Positions 12,305 to 40,520 of a stretch of 40,588 nucleotides of DNA are shown piece after piece (the first letter of the stretch is position 1; every line of letters begins with the position of its first letter). This stretch comes from Candidatus Chaera renei. Its GTDB lineage: Bacteria > Patescibacteriota > Saccharimonadia > Saccharimonadales > Saccharimonadaceae. The stretch covers positions 1 to 40,588 of the forward strand of contig SCKW01000001.1 of NCBI GenBank assembly GCA_004100265.1, written 5' to 3'. The notes under the pieces were generated by a model. The model searched no databases and had not been told where the DNA came from. It saw only the letters and a list, made by a program, of their open reading frames with translations. A program made the position numbers and the translations under genes.

Positions 12305-12973
12305 TCATCCCCTATCTTCCTCCCTGGTGTTTTTACCTCTGTTTTTGGGATTGACCTTGGGTTTGGGGTGTGCTATATTTTGAGTATCACCACGACCAGG
12401 CAGGCCTAAGGTCGACGACCGACCGCCGCTCCTGGTCTTTTTTGTTGCTTGAAAAAGCGGCCTAAGATCGCTGATGAATCTTATTTTAGAATGATATTGG
12501 TTGAGCAGCTTGGAATAGCGATGACGGTTGGGCACCAACACATAGCCCAGCTTTTTGTGGCGGTCTAAAAAATTATACAGGCTTAAAAAGTCGCCGTCGC
12601 CCGAAACGATAATCGCCTTATCATATTCGTCAAAAACGTCAGCCGCGGCATGTACCGCCAAATCAACGTCCACGTTACCTTTTGGAACGTCTTTGCCATA
12701 CTCGTCTTGATAGATCGAAACCGTTTTAAAAACTAAAGTGTAGCCGCATTTCTGCAAATGGGTATACAGTTTGTTATATTGAGGCATAAATCCAATAAAA
12801 AGATACGCCTGGCTGGCATTATATTTTTCTCGCAAATAGTCTCTAAGCTTTTTATAGTCAAGCTGCCGGCCTTTGTATACAACTCTGCCCTTTTTATTCT
12901 TTACGTCGCGGCCCACTCCAAGGTTTAGGTTTTGACTATCGATAAAAGCGTAGTTGTTGGTTGTAGATTTCAT
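12305..12973 (-). CDS. NYN domain (LabA/DUF88-like) putative RNase with basic Gly/Arg/Lys-rich tail
   Basis: YAFIDSQNLNLG start and VSGDGDF acidic motifs typical of the NYN/PIN-like fold. The region is visibly lower in GC. Confidence 0.8.
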   Translation of the reverse strand: MKSTTNNYAFIDSQNLNLGVGRDVKNKKGRVVYKGRQLDYKKLRDYLREKYNASQAYLFIGFMPQYNKLYTHLQKCGYTLVFKTVSIYQDEYGKDVPKGNVDVDLAVHAAADVFDEYDKAIIVSGDGDFLSLYNFLDRHKKLGYVLVPNRHRYSKLLNQYHSKIRFISDLRPLFQATKKTRSGGRSSTLGLPGRGDTQNIAHPKPKVNPKNRGKNTREEDRG

Positions 12974-25321: not shown

Positions 25322-25795
25322 TTAACGACGCGCCTGCCGCAACTCTGATACTTTTATAGTGGCTTCTTTCGGTACGTTCTCAAAATTAGTTTCTGCGTCC
25401 TCAATAAACCAATCGCGAATTTCCAGCGGATATAAAAGTAATTGCGGCAGACCTTTTATTTCATACCAAATAGGGTCATAAAAATTGTCGCTACTTTCTT
25501 TGATATCCCGCGCTTCATTGCCATAGCCAAGTTTTGGCTCACCAGAAACATAACGGCAAAGATAGAAAAATTGCTCGGTATCGTCGTCGTAAATATGGTG
25601 GTAAAGTAATTTTTCTATCCTTATTTCTAAAGATGTTTCCTCTTGAACTTCGCGCAGAACCGCTTGTTCTATAGTTTCGCCATTTTCCACGCCGCCGCCA
25701 GGGAAAACATAGTATTCTCTGCGATGGTTTATACGATGCATAAGCAAAACTTTTCCGTCATTGGCAACTATGGCGACGGCGCGGATTCTTTTCAT
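25322..25795 (-). CDS. NUDIX hydrolase (AT-rich, probably foreign)
   Basis: Nudix box GGGVENGETIEQAVLREVQEETSL. The sequence is visibly much more AT-rich than its neighbours. Confidence 0.85.
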   Translation of the reverse strand: MKRIRAVAIVANDGKVLLMHRINHRREYYVFPGGGVENGETIEQAVLREVQEETSLEIRIEKLLYHHIYDDDTEQFFYLCRYVSGEPKLGYGNEARDIKESSDNFYDPIWYEIKGLPQLLLYPLEIRDWFIEDAETNFENVPKEATIKVSELRQARR

Positions 25796-26281: not shown

Positions 26282-26358
<77 letters not shown>

Positions 26359-35222: not shown

Positions 35223-35242
35223 CGAAAGTTTAATCTTGGTGG
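35223..35242 (+). repeat. left copy of an imperfect direct repeat (17/20 identical to 40096-40115)
   Basis: CGAAAGTTTAATCTTGGTGG versus CGAAAGTCAAATTTTGGTGG. The right copy overlaps the last 6 nt (CCA end) of tRNA-Leu. A CTCGAAC T-loop-like 7-mer follows in both copies, at slightly different spacing. Confidence 0.45.
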
Positions 35243-35640
35243 AATTATATAACTCCGCTCGAACGCATTTTGAACGAAACGGCTGACCTTTGCGCCTCGC
35301 CTGCGCGCGCCTTGCTCGCGCAGGGCAAAACCCGAAAATTTCCTATCATTTTTATTTGCGGCTCTCCCCACACCTCCCGCCGCAAGGCGGAAAATTTGAA
35401 AGGAAGGAAATTTTTGGTTTTGCTGCCGCCGCTTCACTCCTCCAAAAAGGCTAATAGGTGTATTCTAGCATTTTTGCCAGTTTTACGCCCGCCTTTTCTC
35501 CGTCGCTTGCGTCGGCCCGAGGCGCTCCCGTCTCCGCGTTTTGTGGTAATTTGATAGTCCGCTCACACTTCGGCGTAAGTAGGTGGTAAATCGTATTGCG
35601 CTTGCGTCAACCCTCCCGTGCGCGCACAAGCGGAACTCCC

Positions 35641-37605
35641 TTAACTTCTCCTTTGCGACATTGAATTTAAACTGTTGAGATAATCTTTGAACCCTTGTTT
35701 TCCTTGCAACTGGCTCTTTGTATGATTGCTTTTCTTATAACTAAAGTATTCCGCGTGTTCATCTGGCAACTGCTCTAGAAAATCATGCGCTTGTCTCGCG
35801 CCACCAGATTTTAACGCTGTAAGGATGTGTAAACTTTTTCTGGCGCGAGTCATGGCAACATAAAAGGCGTTTTTCGTTACCCGACTCATATTTACATTAT
35901 CGAAACCGATAATAATTACATGATCGGCTGATAATCCTTTTGAGCCGACTATTGTCATCAACTCAATGGCTCCCATTTTTTTTACTTCAATTTCTTCCAA
36001 TTCCGCCTCTTCCTCCTCTTGGTGTTCAATTTCCGTGACTTCTTCTTGGTTGATAGCTTTTCTTTCAATATCCTCTTTAAGCCGCTTCTTGTCGGATAGG
36101 GAAATATGGCCAGCAAGGCTTTCTATTTTTTGCCCTATTGTCTGATCGCCCGCTTCCAAAATGGTTTTAATATCATTGGTTTTTTGCGTTGCGTTTTTAA
36201 CTTCTACAACTTCAAGATCGCAAGAATTTTGATTCTTTTGCATAGCTAGTTTAATCAATTCATGAACCTTCGCCATCGCAATGTTTTCGTAATGCAAAAC
36301 CTTTCGGAAAGTGAAGTTGTTTTGAGGATTATTAGCCAGAGAATAATAACTTAAAATCTTGTAATAGTCCTCCGAAAAATAGCGATTTTCTGCCTGATAC
36401 TCTGCTGCAATATTTGTAATTTTCTTTTTCGATTCTCCATAAAAATTAACTTCTTTTGCTGGAGTTAAGATAAGTAGAAAAGCGTCCTTTTCTTTCCCTT
36501 CGGCTAATTTTGCCTTTCGTTCACCAATCGCTGTTTTGTTATCCGCCACAAATTTTTCTATGTAATCAACCGCCGTTGGAGCAGTCGCACAAGCAATTAC
36601 TTGTACTTTAGGTTTATCATCATCCGTTTTTATTGGCAGATAGATTTTTTCTATGCATTCCGTATCTCGGTTTTGCTGAATAAAATGTCCAGCCGACCTT
36701 GTAATGTGGAAACTGCTACGACCGCAGAAAGGCAACATCCCATTTGCATAGTCATTGTTTCGGTAAAGGTTCCGTATTAAATTTGGTTTCCCTGATTTTA
36801 ATTTTTCGTAAAGCACTTGTTCATCGTCGCCAACAACAAGCAGACCTCTTGGATTGTTTACCAACTGATTTATCAAAGCGTCTTCGGCGGCATTAAAATC
36901 TTGGTACTCGTCAATAATAAAGCAGTCACTCTCATTAAGATTTGTGTTTTCGGCCAAAGCGTCTTTCGCTCGCAAAATTAAATCAGCAAAACCAGCCGCA
37001 TTGAAAAATCGGCATAACTTAAAATAAGTTTCTTTCAAATTTTGCCATTCTATCGCTTCATCAAAATCGGCATTGTGTAACTGTTCCTCGAATTTTTTCC
37101 AACTATAAAGACCCGGATCTAATCCAGCGTGGAAAGCTAAAACATCGCCCCATACAACGTCTTTCCATGACTGCCCTATGATTCGAAAATGCGGCTGAAA
37201 ACGCCACTCCGTCGTACCGTGATTTTGCTCCACGATACTACGGGCAAATTTATGCAAAGTATGGACTTCAACTTGATCTTTTTGTGCTTGAGTTAAATTT
37301 TCATCTCCTTGTATATCGCTGTCTAAATCTGCCACAAGCTTTCGGACAAAGGTTAGACATAGAATTTTTGAAGTGGAATCTTGCTCTAGCCAAAAACTAA
37401 TCCTGCCTTTGAATAAAGTGCTTTTGCCCGTTCCGGGGCCAGAAACGATCAGAAACTTTCCAGCGCTGTGTTTAGCAATAACCGAGGCGTTTTGATTTCG
37501 GTATTCGGAACGTCCATTGTTGTCTAATGCGTCAAGTTCGCTATGTAAAGTTTGGAGTTCACTTGATTCAAATGGAGTGCCATCATCGTTAATTAAGTGT
37601 CGCAT
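35641..37605 (-). CDS. SF1 UvrD/Rep/PcrA-like DNA helicase with a long insertion containing a Glu-rich stretch
   Basis: Walker A GPGTGKST, motif II FIIDEYQDF, motif III VVGDDEQVLY, motif IV-like CGRSS, motif V VGSKGLSADHVIIIG, motif VI FYVAMTRARKSLHIL. There are about 250 aa between motifs IV and V, including EEVTEIEHQEEEEAELEEIE. Confidence 0.9.
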   Translation of the reverse strand: MRHLINDDGTPFESSELQTLHSELDALDNNGRSEYRNQNASVIAKHSAGKFLIVSGPGTGKSTLFKGRISFWLEQDSTSKILCLTFVRKLVADLDSDIQGDENLTQAQKDQVEVHTLHKFARSIVEQNHGTTEWRFQPHFRIIGQSWKDVVWGDVLAFHAGLDPGLYSWKKFEEQLHNADFDEAIEWQNLKETYFKLCRFFNAAGFADLILRAKDALAENTNLNESDCFIIDEYQDFNAAEDALINQLVNNPRGLLVVGDDEQVLYEKLKSGKPNLIRNLYRNNDYANGMLPFCGRSSFHITRSAGHFIQQNRDTECIEKIYLPIKTDDDKPKVQVIACATAPTAVDYIEKFVADNKTAIGERKAKLAEGKEKDAFLLILTPAKEVNFYGESKKKITNIAAEYQAENRYFSEDYYKILSYYSLANNPQNNFTFRKVLHYENIAMAKVHELIKLAMQKNQNSCDLEVVEVKNATQKTNDIKTILEAGDQTIGQKIESLAGHISLSDKKRLKEDIERKAINQEEVTEIEHQEEEEAELEEIEVKKMGAIELMTIVGSKGLSADHVIIIGFDNVNMSRVTKNAFYVAMTRARKSLHILTALKSGGARQAHDFLEQLPDEHAEYFSYKKSNHTKSQLQGKQGFKDYLNSLNSMSQRRS

Positions 37606-37617
37606 GGGGACTAATTT

Positions 37618-38727
37618 TTATATTCCAGATTTTGTCCGGTTGTGTTCTTTGCAGAGCATTTGGCAGTTTTCGGCAATAGTTTTTCCGCCTTCGTTCCATG
37701 GAGTTATATGATCGGCCTCCATTTCTTCAATATCCCACTTTTGTTTTTCCTTCTTCTCTTTTTTGCACCACGGACAAACACCTTTCTGCCGCTCATACGC
37801 TTCGCGCTTCATTTTGTCGATAAAGGCTCGGATGGAAAGGTGTCTTTCTTGCCCCGTCAAAACATAAGGATAAATGCCAGACTTTTTGGTAACGTCTTCG
37901 TCTTGCATTAACTCTTTAATCTCGGCTTCTAGTTTGGCGGCGTTTAGTTTCTTATCTTTGAATTTGTTGTATAGTTCGCCCCAATTTACATTTGCCATCT
38001 CTTTGCGGTAATTGGGAAAAGTTTTGCGCACCCATGCAATTACGTCTTGGAAGTATCGCCACAATTCATTGGCATTTTTGTCATGCTGGTGCTTCGCCAT
38101 ATAATCTTCAATCTTGCCGTCATTTATCCACGAGAGTGCTGTTTCTAGATATTCCTGCCGGATTGGTGAACCGCTAACCAACGATCCGCCATCGTTTGCC
38201 AATAAGTACGCTACGCAGTTTGTTTTGCTAAACTTCAACTTGGCATCTGAAAGCCACGGCCCGGTATAAACCGCATTGCGAATTTCTTGGTCGGTCAATT
38301 TTTCTCCAGCGATGTTGATAATCCTAAACCAGTCGAGACGCTCTTTGTCTGTACCTTCGCAGAAATAAATCATCAGTTCATAATCTAAAATTTGGTCCTG
38401 CTCCTCCTTGAGTAGATTATGGAAGTATCTTTCATTCAGTGAAAAATCGCCATTAACATATTGCCCGATACTGATAGTGCGCTGTTGGCCGTCCAACACT
38501 TCGTAGCCGCCATCTTCGCGCACCATCCAGTACATCACGTTGAGTGGAAAATTTTGCTTAACTGTTTCAAGCACCGCATCGCGTTGCTTGTCTTTATAGA
38601 CAAATTCACGTTGATATTTTGGGCGGACATCTAATCTACCACCATAAGCCACAACGCCTTCCTCGTGGCTGTCTTTGTAGCCAGAAATAACTTTGCGAAT
38701 TGGGATTTTGTGCAGTTCAATTTTCAT
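37618..38727 (-). CDS. DUF262 (ParB-like, GmrSD N-domain type) protein fused to a C-terminal HNH endonuclease
   Basis: DGQQR motif (VLDGQQRTISIGQY) near the N-terminus. C-terminal CPWC...ADHITPWNEGGKTIAENCQMLCKEHNRTKS is an HNH/His-Me finger with a zinc-ribbon cysteine pattern. Confidence 0.9.
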   Translation of the reverse strand: MKIELHKIPIRKVISGYKDSHEEGVVAYGGRLDVRPKYQREFVYKDKQRDAVLETVKQNFPLNVMYWMVREDGGYEVLDGQQRTISIGQYVNGDFSLNERYFHNLLKEEQDQILDYELMIYFCEGTDKERLDWFRIINIAGEKLTDQEIRNAVYTGPWLSDAKLKFSKTNCVAYLLANDGGSLVSGSPIRQEYLETALSWINDGKIEDYMAKHQHDKNANELWRYFQDVIAWVRKTFPNYRKEMANVNWGELYNKFKDKKLNAAKLEAEIKELMQDEDVTKKSGIYPYVLTGQERHLSIRAFIDKMKREAYERQKGVCPWCKKEKKEKQKWDIEEMEADHITPWNEGGKTIAENCQMLCKEHNRTKSGI

Positions 38728-38728
38728 A

Positions 38729-39784
38729 CTATTTTTTTACCTTCTTGTTTCTTATTAAAATTCTAAAATAAGTATACTTTCCGTTTATTGCTAAATCCTT
38801 GTCATCGTCGCCCTTGCGAAATTTTATAATCTCAAATTGTTCTGGATTATATTTATCAAGAAAAGTTATCGGCACGCCCATTGCGCCGTCATAATCCACA
38901 GGAATCTCGGTAACTTTTGATACCTCAATCGCGTCGTAGTTGTCGTATTTCGGATACTCTTTTGGGGTATATTTTTTATAGAGATCAAGTTTTTGGTGAC
39001 GCTTGGCAGTATCAAGGTTTGTAAACCAAATTGACGGCGATCTACCATAAACCACTCCATTGATAACTTTATATTGACTACCGACTTTACCGTTTTCTAC
39101 CATTCTTTTTGCGTATTCGTCTGGCACAATAAACAGCATATCGTATCCCATCGGCATCATTCCGGCCCAAAGTTTATTTTCTTTAATCAGCTTGAAAATC
39201 TCCTTATAGGTGATTGCATTTTTGTTGCCAAGAATCAAAAACTTTTTGTTATATTCCACCAGTTGGGCGACATATTCACGGAAAAGCGAGAACGGTGGAT
39301 TGGTCACTACAATATCGGCTTGTTTGAGCAGTTCAATGCACTCATCGCTGCGGAAATCTCCACCGTCTTTGAGAGGCGTAACGGTGTTTTTATCGCACTT
39401 TAGTAACTGTTTTACGTCGTTAATATCTATCGCTCCGTCTTGGTCGCTATCTAACACTTCAGTAATTTCAATTTTTAGTGGTTCCTTCTTTTTCTCGTTT
39501 TTTACGCCTTCCATTTCAAGTAGTGATAGCTGCTTCCCAGTAATCGGTGATCCACTGTAACTGGTAGCAATAAGTTTTTTTAGTCCAAACTCCTTGAAAT
39601 TGGCGGCAAAGTATTTGAAAAAATTACTCTCAAAAGGATCATCACAGTTGCAATATACGACCTTGCCGCGAAACTGATCCTTGTAGTGTTTCAGCTCTTT
39701 TTCAATATCAACCAGCCGAGTATAAAACTCGTCTTTTTTTGCCTTGTTTGCTTTATGCAAAGTTGTATTTGAAGATTTAGCCAT
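38729..39784 (-). CDS. EcoRI-methylase-family N6-adenine DNA methyltransferase
   Basis: DEFYTRLVDIEKEL...VVYCNCDDP...GDFRS...ADIVVTNPPFSLFREY...YPKYDNYDAI...MGVPITFLDKYNP pattern, with catalytic NPPF. It is 1 nt from the next gene and 2 nt after the regulator gene. Confidence 0.88.
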   Translation of the reverse strand: MAKSSNTTLHKANKAKKDEFYTRLVDIEKELKHYKDQFRGKVVYCNCDDPFESNFFKYFAANFKEFGLKKLIATSYSGSPITGKQLSLLEMEGVKNEKKKEPLKIEITEVLDSDQDGAIDINDVKQLLKCDKNTVTPLKDGGDFRSDECIELLKQADIVVTNPPFSLFREYVAQLVEYNKKFLILGNKNAITYKEIFKLIKENKLWAGMMPMGYDMLFIVPDEYAKRMVENGKVGSQYKVINGVVYGRSPSIWFTNLDTAKRHQKLDLYKKYTPKEYPKYDNYDAIEVSKVTEIPVDYDGAMGVPITFLDKYNPEQFEIIKFRKGDDDKDLAINGKYTYFRILIRNKKVKK

Positions 39785-39786
39785 AG

Positions 39787-39999
39787 TTATTTCAACAGCT
39801 CGTCGCTTGTTACTCCCAATGCTTGAGCGATTTTCTCAATGGTGGCGAGCGTGGGATTGCCTTTGCCCGCTTCAATATTGCTCATTTGCGCACGATCAAG
39901 TCCGACCGCGCGGCAAATGTCGCCTTGCGTCATATTCTTTTGCTCGCGTATTCGCTTGATGTTTTTGCCAAGTTTTGACGTTGGGGTTTTCATATTCAC
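39787..39999 (-). CDS. XRE-family HTH protein, R-M controller (C-protein)-like
   Basis: About 70 aa HTH_3 pattern (IKRIREQKNMTQGDICRAVGLDRAQMSNIEAGKGNPTLATIEKIAQALGV). First gene of the operon. Start is GTG at 39999 or ATG at 39993. Confidence 0.85.
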   Translation of the reverse strand: MNMKTPTSKLGKNIKRIREQKNMTQGDICRAVGLDRAQMSNIEAGKGNPTLATIEKIAQALGVTSDELLK

Positions 40000-40005
40000 A
40001 GATGT

Positions 40006-40052
40006 ATTATAGCCAAATATTGTGTCTTATGACAATAATGTGATATATTACA
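40006..40052 (-). promoter_or_regulatory. candidate promoter (TTGTCA-N18-TATAAT, minus strand) with two TGT...ACA palindromic operator-like boxes
   Basis: -10 at 40011-40006 and -35 at 40035-40030. Palindromes are TGTCTTATGACA (40023-40034, overlapping the -35) and TGTGATATATTACA (40039-40052, 12/14 symmetric). Confidence 0.45.
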
Positions 40053-40095
40053 AGTATGTATTTAGTGAAGCGGCGGAATCAGTGGGCAAAATGCC

Positions 40096-40115
40096 CGAAA
40101 GTCAAATTTTGGTGG
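40096..40115 (+). repeat. right copy of the imperfect direct repeat (see 35223-35242), overlapping the tRNA-Leu 3' end
   Basis: 17/20 identity with the left copy, in the same orientation. Confidence 0.45.
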
Positions 40116-40198
40116 GCGAGGTGGGACTCGAACCCACAAGGCCTGTTATGGCCAGCGGATTTTAAGTCCGCCGCGTATACCGGTTCCGCCACTCGCCC
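40110..40198 (-). tRNA. tRNA-Leu (anticodon UAA), long variable arm, CCA encoded
   Basis: Hand fold: acceptor GGGCGAG/CTCGCCC, anticodon stem GCGGA/TCCGC with loop CTTAAAA, variable arm TGGCCATAACAGGCCTT, T arm GTGGG-TTCGAGT-CCCAC. Confidence 0.92.
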
Positions 40199-40232: not shown

Positions 40233-40306
40233 TGGAGGCGCGTACGGGAATCGCACCCGTCTACGAGGTTTTGCAGACCTCTGCGTAACTTCTCCGCCAA
40301 CGCGCC
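40233..40306 (-). tRNA. tRNA-Cys (anticodon GCA), CCA encoded
   Basis: Hand fold: acceptor GGCGCGT/ACGCGCC, anticodon stem GAGGT/ACCTC with loop CTGCAAA, T arm ACGGG-TGCGATT-CCCGT. Confidence 0.9.
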
Positions 40307-40443: not shown

Positions 40444-40520
40444 GCGGGTGTAGCTCAGTTGTTTAGAGCGCGTCCTTGCCAAGGACGAGGCCGAGAGTTA
40501 GAGTCTCTTCACCCGCACCA
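40444..40520 (+). tRNA. tRNA-Gly (anticodon GCC), CCA encoded
   Basis: Hand fold: acceptor GCGGGTG/CACCCGC, D arm GCTC/GAGC, anticodon stem CGTCC/GGACG with loop TTGCCAA, T arm GAGAG-TTAGAGT-CTCTT (one G-U pair). Confidence 0.92.

Follow-up and report, generated by a model that had tools for sequence, protein, structure and literature searches.

We analysed a stretch of 40,588 nucleotides from contig SCKW01000001.1 of Candidatus Chaera renei (hereafter the window), which carries near its right end an operon of four genes encoding a controller-type regulator (C), an EcoRI-family adenine methyltransferase (M), a nuclease with DUF262 and HNH domains (R) and a UvrD-like helicase (H). We found that C, M and R make up, as judged from their sequences, a C-regulated type II restriction-modification (R-M) system of a widespread and already classified family, and that the helicase belongs to a family that is linked to R-M operons of all types. 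This linkage had gone unnoticed in an earlier note on the same DNA, which had been made from the letters alone. The core system is ordinary; the new part is the association of the helicase with R-M. With moderate confidence, we read the operon as a C-controlled type II system joined by a portable accessory helicase of superfamily 1A (SF1A), which perhaps acts on cleaved DNA.

Organization of the operon

As evident from the open reading frames (ORFs), the genes C, M, R and H follow one another in this order on the minus strand, and the gaps between them are 2, 1 and 12 nt, just as the earlier note had stated. The junctions read TAA-ct-ATG between C and M, TAG-t-ATG between M and R, and TAA-aaattagtcccc-ATG between R and H. 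A search for intrinsic terminators within the operon gave no signal, with 4 found and 6.2 expected. All of the Pfam domains that had been predicted by eye were detected in the four proteins, namely HTH_3, EcoRI_methylase, GmrSD_N, HNH, UvrD-helicase and UvrD_C. The coordinates of these genes and of the other features are given in Table 1.

Methyltransferase and DUF262-HNH nuclease

The match of M to the EcoRI_methylase profile spanned positions 2-337 of the 345 profile positions, and the translation carries the catalytic motif TNPPFS. M was also matched along its full length by the PADLOC type II methyltransferase profile MTase_II PDLC03297 (E 1.5e-127). The Pfam matches of R were GmrSD_N (DUF262, PF03235; 5.4e-16) and HNH PF01844 (4.4e-8), together with a further HNH profile, PF14279; DUF1524 (PF07510) gave no match to R at E values up to 0.01. 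The PADLOC profile REase_II PDLC03418 covered residues 1-367 of the 369 residues of R (E 9.4e-135), while NsnA or PD-T4-2 gave partial matches only. Among 24 R homologs, we found the following residues to be invariant: D79-G80-Q81-Q82-R83 of the DGQQR motif, D339-H340, N354 and N363, and the cysteines C318, C321, C355 and C359. The invariant catalytic residues and the type II profiles of PADLOC are in line with the earlier proposal of a methylation-protected restriction system in which the DUF262-HNH protein would be the nuclease. The AlphaFold model of R (mean pLDDT 50, pTM 0.27) was too poor for a fold search, and sequence searches of the PDB with R and M returned no match.

A scan of species-representative genomes seeded with the nuclease yielded 538 encoding stretches, from which 80 loci (L001-L080) were kept. 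An EcoRI-family methyltransferase lay directly 5' of the nuclease in 76 of them. Among the four exceptions, the nuclease starts at the contig end in two loci, L066 has 463 nt upstream, and L024 has 983 nt upstream without a methyltransferase match. More than 8000 relatives of R are present in the databases, and the best 120 are 83-94% identical to it and come from Patescibacteria, Proteobacteria and Bacteroidota. The M-R pair was found in hundreds of genomes and on plasmids from many phyla, with annotated examples in Aeromonas, Variovorax, Gordonia and Lactobacillus, among others. The combination of M and R is therefore not unfamiliar, because PADLOC holds full-length type II profiles for both proteins and because they are linked in nearly all of the kept loci. 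With a PADLOC control-protein profile also in existence and the pair so widespread, the earlier impression of an unfamiliar combination was not borne out. A named prototype or a recognition site for a pair of a DUF262-HNH nuclease and an EcoRI-like methyltransferase was not found in the literature searched.

As a separate observation, the nuclease was 79-93% identical across Patescibacteria, Proteobacteria, Bacteroidota and Omnitrophota in L001-L080, and the identity of the adjoining methyltransferase was only 52-70%. This gap is in part an effect of choosing the loci by nuclease similarity; the degree of conservation across phyla is nevertheless striking.

Controller gene and its predicted promoter

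The C protein matched HTH_3 (6.3e-16) and the PADLOC profile Control_protein PDLC03665 (1.3e-15). Among solved structures, its best match was C.BclI (2b5a, 2.8e-7), and C.Esp1396I and C.AhdI were also matched. The likeness to controller proteins that had been pointed out for this small XRE-type protein was thus upheld by PADLOC and by the C.BclI structure. Of the two possible starts listed in Table 1, the ATG at 39993 is the one used where the gene was called on L164, a contig identical to this one.

The palindromic boxes described earlier over the promoter of the gene were also recovered, in the form of two C-box-like dyads; the distal dyad lies just upstream of the -35 hexamer and the proximal one overlaps it, and the palindrome search found the dyad at 40039-40052. 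In a regional scan, the predicted promoter was the top site on the minus strand, with a score tied with that of a plus-strand site at 38078. Because the -10 box ends 6 nt ahead of the GTG at 39999 and 12 nt ahead of the ATG at 39993, the C mRNA would be nearly leaderless from either start. Nearly leaderless mRNAs are a feature of several C genes.

The 60-bp region that contains the promoter and the boxes was invariant in L083, L035 and L164, despite identities of 52-64% for M and 36-83% for R in L083 and L035. In particular, L083 showed identities to the window of 94% for C, 52% for M, 36% for R and 85% for H, which suggests that the specificity core M-R may have been swapped in a modular fashion within a constant frame of C with its operator and the helicase. 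M and R of L083 are of the same family in a divergent form, placed between conserved front and back ends. The reading of the C gene as a controller, with putative operator boxes ahead of it, is supported.

Helicase protein

The 654-residue product of the last gene was found to be a helicase of the UvrD/Rep/PcrA type, and its profile search gave UvrD, Rep and PcrA as the best matches. The Walker A motif GPGTGKS and the motifs DEYQD, GDDEQ and TRAR were invariant in 27 H homologs. A Foldseek search with the AlphaFold model (mean pLDDT 67.5) placed UvrD (2is1, 1.4e-15) at the top, with GajB at 2e-5. The overall fold was that of a plain four-domain UvrD protein, with no nuclease or effector domain seen by Pfam or in the model, and Pfam detected no Rep/HUH or relaxase domain. 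The PADLOC matches were confined to weak partial ones to GajB (6.6e-26 at best) and RTasHel, and PADLOC v2 contains no dedicated model for the H family. In PLSDB plasmids and INPHARED phages, we found only generic Rep or PcrA proteins at 21-28% identity.

Two features specific to the helicase clade were also seen, an invariant acidic stretch (HQEEEEAELEEIE) at residues 527-540 and a conserved N-terminal extension of 38 residues; both fall in low-confidence parts of the model.

The position downstream of the nuclease

Of the 80 nuclease loci, 73 were informative for the position behind the nuclease, having at least 1.5 kb of downstream DNA. A helicase homolog stood 3' of the nuclease in just two of these (L035 and L076), and the helicase is not a specific partner of the DUF262-HNH nuclease. 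Of the two genes whose co-occurrence with the nuclease the earlier note had suggested checking, the methyltransferase was linked to it and the helicase was not, and the view of the helicase as a dedicated partner of the nuclease was not sustained. In other loci, the position was taken by other tightly coupled genes, which encode an OLD-family ATPase-TOPRIM protein, ABC-ATPases of the AAA_13/PDC-S06 and Ppl-like kinds, DUF2130 proteins and unknowns. The OLD-family ATPase-TOPRIM gene (AAA_15 with an OLD-like TOPRIM) was coupled 3' of M-R in L045 (2469-5736), L032 (9114-11069) and L020 (1900-3723).

Linkage of the helicase family to restriction-modification operons

A search seeded with the helicase provided 80 metagenome loci, in which genes were called, neighbours were clustered and representatives were annotated. 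Including the window, 43 loci were informative, having a helicase at least 60% identical and more than 600 nt upstream of it. An R-M gene on the same strand preceded the helicase in 36 of the 43. The gap between the two was mostly -17 to +26 nt; it was about 93-106 nt in L113, L114 and L141, and in L126 two small ORFs lay between them. We found six sets of partners: an EcoRI-like methyltransferase with a DUF262-HNH nuclease; a C protein with an N4/N6 methyltransferase and TdeIII; an HsdR-like protein of compact size next to an HsdM-S fusion; a type IIG enzyme, in many cases with a PLD-SNF2 protein ahead of it; type III Mod and Res; and a canonical type I system. In two of the seven exceptions, unannotated genes of 326 and 365 aa stood 14-15 nt upstream of the helicase, and these could encode unrecognised endonucleases.

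The four-gene architecture was seen again in independent, precomputed gene calls, for P0130 (more than 24 contigs) as well as for P0128, and in P0136 a Dam-type methyltransferase and an unknown gene of 382 aa accompanied the helicase. When the helicases were ordered by similarity, the partner types were interleaved, with the DUF262-HNH partner at three separate places, and partners must therefore have been switched repeatedly. More distant homologs, at 50-57% identity, adjoin RmrA, PDC-M41B and Lamassu/Hachiman-effector-like genes. No description of a UvrD-like accessory linked to R-M was found in the literature searched, a 2025 review of R-M included.

Several of these loci showed arrangements of their own. 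A recurrent three-gene module of PLD-SNF2, type IIG and UvrD-like genes was present in L104-L111, L115-L118, L126 and L153 (for example, L106 307-8956). The PLD-SNF2 protein measured about 1070 aa (PADLOC 'HKD+Snf2' C3a139, DrmD-like) and the type IIG fusion about 1150 aa (PDLC03596, 4.8e-299), and the junctions of the module overlapped or lay within a few nucleotides. In L088 (1754-8971), and similarly in L089 and L093-L099, a C-like HTH protein of 65 aa was followed by an HsdR-like protein of 838 aa, an HsdM-HsdS fusion of 840 aa and the helicase; a controller-type regulator at the head of a type I-like system is unusual. Additionally, the two stand-alone helicases of about 70% identity, in L173 (6273-10004) and L175 (8001-11413), were both located beside FolE, QueD/PTPS and a radical-SAM gene, a queuosine/7-deazaguanine neighbourhood that could be a coincidence or could reflect a link to DNA or tRNA modification.

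The island and its boundaries

The G+C content of positions 35501-40000 was 0.38-0.42 in 1-kb windows, compared with 0.53-0.60 in the rest of the window. By gene, it was 0.39 for H, 0.43 for R, 0.38 for M and 0.48 for C, and it was 0.56 over positions 1-35145. Overall, the segment has a G+C content of about 40%, its flanks have about 56%, and tRNA-Leu directly abuts it, in agreement with the earlier description of an AT-rich region beside a tRNA cluster. The ORF and Pfam survey of the island yielded four genes only, with no integrase among them. We take positions 35223-40115 to be, presumably, an integrase-less island of 4.9 kb that was inserted at the 3' end of tRNA-Leu with one operon as its cargo.

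The two copies of the putative att repeat match at 17 of 20 bases, and the local alignment score of 25, compared with a maximum of 23 across 500 shuffles, lends them modest support; the repeat search gave no exact att repeats, and this imperfect pair came from local alignment only. The 13-nt inverted repeat at 40064-40076 marks the left boundary of the cassette common to L035 and L083, and the junction position was the same in L035, L083 and L164.

Table 1. Features of the operon, of the island that carries it and of the adjoining tRNA genes (positions in the window).
Feature	Position	Strand	Description
tRNA-Gly	40444-40520	+	ARAGORN, Rfam
tRNA-Cys	40233-40306	-	ARAGORN, Rfam
tRNA-Leu(taa)	40110-40198	-	ARAGORN; Rfam tRNA 60.5 bits; 3' end abuts the island; presumed integration target
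att-like direct repeat, copy 1	40096-40115	-	CCACCAAAATTTGACTTTCG (minus-strand letters); contains the CCA end of tRNA-Leu
13-nt inverted repeat	40064-40076		GTGAAGCGGCGGC; inverted repeat of 35426-35438; blastn-short self-match
Two C-box-like 14-bp dyads	40021-40052	-	TGTAATATATCACA at 40052-40039 and TGTCATAAGACACA at 40034-40021; spacer TTAT
Sigma-70-like promoter	40006-40035	-	TTGTCA-18 nt-TATAAT; promoter scan 11/12, consensus match only
C protein, XRE/HTH_3	39787-39999	-	70 aa from GTG 39999, or 68 aa from ATG 39993
M, EcoRI-family N6-adenine DNA methyltransferase (predicted)	38729-39784	-	351 aa; PF13651 7.9e-139; PADLOC MTase_II
R, DUF262 (DGQQR) and zinc-ribbon HNH nuclease (predicted)	37618-38727	-	369 aa; Pfam and PADLOC REase_II
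H, UvrD/Rep/PcrA-like SF1A helicase	35641-37605	-	654 aa; UvrD-helicase 7.5e-26, UvrD_C 4.7e-8
Conserved non-coding element	35237-35572	-	about 330 bp, island terminus; 3' of the helicase gene, ahead of the distal repeat
att-like direct repeat, copy 2	35223-35242	-	CCACCAAGATTAAACTTTCG (minus-strand letters); far end of the 4.9-kb island

The island terminus (35223-35640), in which the conserved non-coding element lies, had a G+C content of 0.53. Copies of this element were found in cassettes that differ in cargo, with identities of 92.6% in L088 (9120-9452), 93.8% in L089 (7583-7841), 88% in L083 (4949-5195), 81% in L045 (5909-6162) and 76% in L030 (12414-12586). Inverted part-copies of about 100-214 bp were also present 5' of the operon in L088 (1450-1660), L089 (1-123) and L083 (3-105). 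The element could be the terminal repeat or recombination site of a family of integrase-less mobile cassettes, or the pattern could be an assembly effect of an invertible segment. Inversion of the cassette by an invertase was unsupported, as no Pfam match was obtained for the 190-aa ORF that neighbours the inverted copy in L088. A structured RNA was likewise unsupported: Rfam gave no match to the element, and in RNAalifold on five sequences of it the covariation term was unfavourable, with few compensatory pairs.

Two further dips in G+C (0.45 and 0.48) with one gene each were seen in the window on the minus strand, at 25322-25795, near tRNA-Ala (26282-26358), and at 12305-12973. By eye, the product of the former gene (157 aa) has a Nudix box (GGGVENGETIEQAVLREVQEETSL), and that of the latter (222 aa) resembles an NYN/LabA-like domain. 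Both dips may be small horizontally acquired insertions.

Proposed role of the helicase and alternative explanations

From the observed gene order, domains and catalytic motifs, and from the linkage of M to R and of the helicase to R-M, we infer the enzymatic roles, the C-box regulation and the helicase mechanism as follows. The C protein would bind the two dyad boxes at its own promoter, by which expression would be delayed and then capped. M would place N6-methyladenine (m6A) at the recognition site, and R would cut unmethylated DNA via its zinc-ribbon HNH site, with the DGQQR domain, a ParB-like nucleoside triphosphatase (NTPase), probably serving as a nucleotide-dependent switch or a DNA clamp. 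The helicase would act after cleavage, either unwinding from the break for degradation or stripping recombinases to block repair, and restriction would be boosted in this way. Since the partner enzymes of the helicase family are mutually unrelated, a specific protein contact is unlikely, and the factor that they share would be broken or nicked unmethylated DNA. We put forward, tentatively and with some doubt, that the members of this helicase clade act as a portable 'restriction booster', which would have been moved repeatedly among type I, II, IIG and III operons and would work with any of them. In hosts such as Patescibacteria, such a helicase might provide a means of processing DNA ends.

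Several points weigh against our reading of the operon. This R-M family can do without the helicase, which is absent from 71 of the 73 informative nuclease loci, and the varied contents of the position behind the nuclease fit a plain stacking of defence genes in an island. Stand-alone homologs about 70% identical to the helicase were found amid housekeeping genes in P0215 (more than 24 contigs) and P0203, and in P0160 only a divergently oriented methyltransferase adjoins it; the linkage to R-M is accordingly not an obligate one, and the protein may act alone. No Shine-Dalgarno sequence was evident before the helicase gene. The PADLOC label 'Type II' is a database classification and not biochemical proof, and all steps of the mechanism are drawn from sequence.

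Among the alternatives, the main and still live rival is one that the earlier note had already raised and that we consider unlikely on the whole. It sees two independent modules on one transcript, a type II R-M system and either a self-sufficient helicase defence or a selfish passenger. The helicase would then collect at the 3' ends of R-M operons because the position there is permissive, co-regulated and co-mobilised. Besides the stand-alone helicases and the many unrelated defence-type genes in the post-nuclease position, the neighbours of the distant homologs also speak for independence. However, the clade of at least 60% identity has almost exclusively methyltransferase-containing R-M upstream rather than the general mix of a defence island, and the helicase has neither a visible effector domain nor, as said above, a PADLOC v2 model of its own.

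An integrated three-component system, in which the DUF262-HNH nuclease would need the helicase as a partner that evolved along with it, would account for the 12-nt coupling between R and H and for the four-gene architecture in the L035, L076, L083, P0130 and P0128 loci. We regard it as highly improbable given the rarity of the helicase behind this nuclease, the presence of close helicase relatives in type I-like, TdeIII, Dam-type and type III operons, and the helicase-free M-R pairs on plasmids of cultured bacteria.

A still poorer prospect is that the helicase works for the element or for the host rather than in restriction, either by repairing self-inflicted breaks on entry (restriction alleviation) or in replication or mobilisation of the island. 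UvrD-family helicases have repair and anti-RecA roles, the island carries att-like repeats without an integrase, and the same terminal element recurs across different cargo, all of which would suit such a role. Nevertheless, cassettes in L030 and L045 carry the same terminal element without a helicase, so the element does not need it, and the absence of a Rep/HUH or relaxase domain also counts against this explanation.

Finally, a type IV GmrSD-like, modification-dependent nuclease beside an orphan methyltransferase, to which the intact DGQQR of DUF262, as in GmrSD, BrxU and SspE, had pointed, can be dismissed, because the methyltransferase adjoins the nuclease in nearly all loci and across a 1-nt junction here, the C-terminal domain is PF01844 HNH and not DUF1524, PADLOC matches the full length to a type II enzyme and only parts to NsnA or PD-T4-2, and a nuclease that depends on m6A would presumably be suicidal when expressed together with an m6A methyltransferase.

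Restriction-modification is the commonest bacterial defence, and accessory genes that serve R-M systems of every type are, to our knowledge, essentially unknown. If the booster reading of the helicase is correct, the family would represent a generic, undescribed class of accessory for R-M. A boost independent of the partner would mean that the processing of DNA after cleavage is a part of restriction that can be selected for and transferred; it would also help to explain R-M in small-genome lineages and would offer a simple module with which stronger barriers against phages and plasmids could be engineered.

Comparison with known systems

We compared the operon with the C-controlled type II systems BclI, AhdI, Esp1396I and PvuII and found the organization to be similar: the C gene comes first, followed by M and R, two dyad boxes stand 4 bp apart at a nearly leaderless and apparently autoregulated promoter, and the whole forms a mobile AT-rich cassette. 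The operon differs from these systems in its predicted nuclease, which combines DUF262 with HNH instead of being a PD-(D/E)XK or plain HNH enzyme, and in its fourth gene, the co-transcribed helicase. Compared with the PADLOC-DB family defined by PDLC03418 and PDLC03297, the order and the tight coupling are the same, and the M-R pair shows no essential difference.

R resembles the DUF262-DUF1524 proteins GmrSD, BrxU and SspE in having an N-terminal DUF262 with DGQQR and a C-terminal His-Me-finger nuclease. In contrast to them, its nuclease domain is PF01844 HNH and it is paired with a methyltransferase, so that it is expected to cut unmodified DNA. The DUF262-HNH nuclease would accordingly be a methylation-sensitive relative of the GmrSD-type enzymes and would place the DGQQR NTPase domain in systems of opposite logic.

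The order of a nuclease gene and a UvrD-family helicase gene recalls Gabija (GajA and GajB). Gabija was nevertheless rejected, in agreement with the earlier note, since the island contains no ORF or domain of the GajA/OLD-TOPRIM kind; moreover, a methyltransferase is present here, and by Foldseek the helicase is structurally nearer to UvrD, PcrA and Rep (1e-15) than to GajB (2e-5). A stand-alone UvrD-like gene appended to a complete defence operon has been described in DarHTG and 'type II Gabija', where the partner is DarTG, ietAS or a MazF-like protein and not restriction-modification (PMC13069673).

The proposed mechanism of the helicase follows from a functional analogy to the superfamily 2 motors of type I, type III and ISP enzymes and to degradation by RecBCD/AddAB, in which an ATP-driven DNA motor is likewise coupled to restriction. 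The difference is that the motor here would be a separate SF1A protein, outside the restriction enzyme and interchangeable among R-M types.

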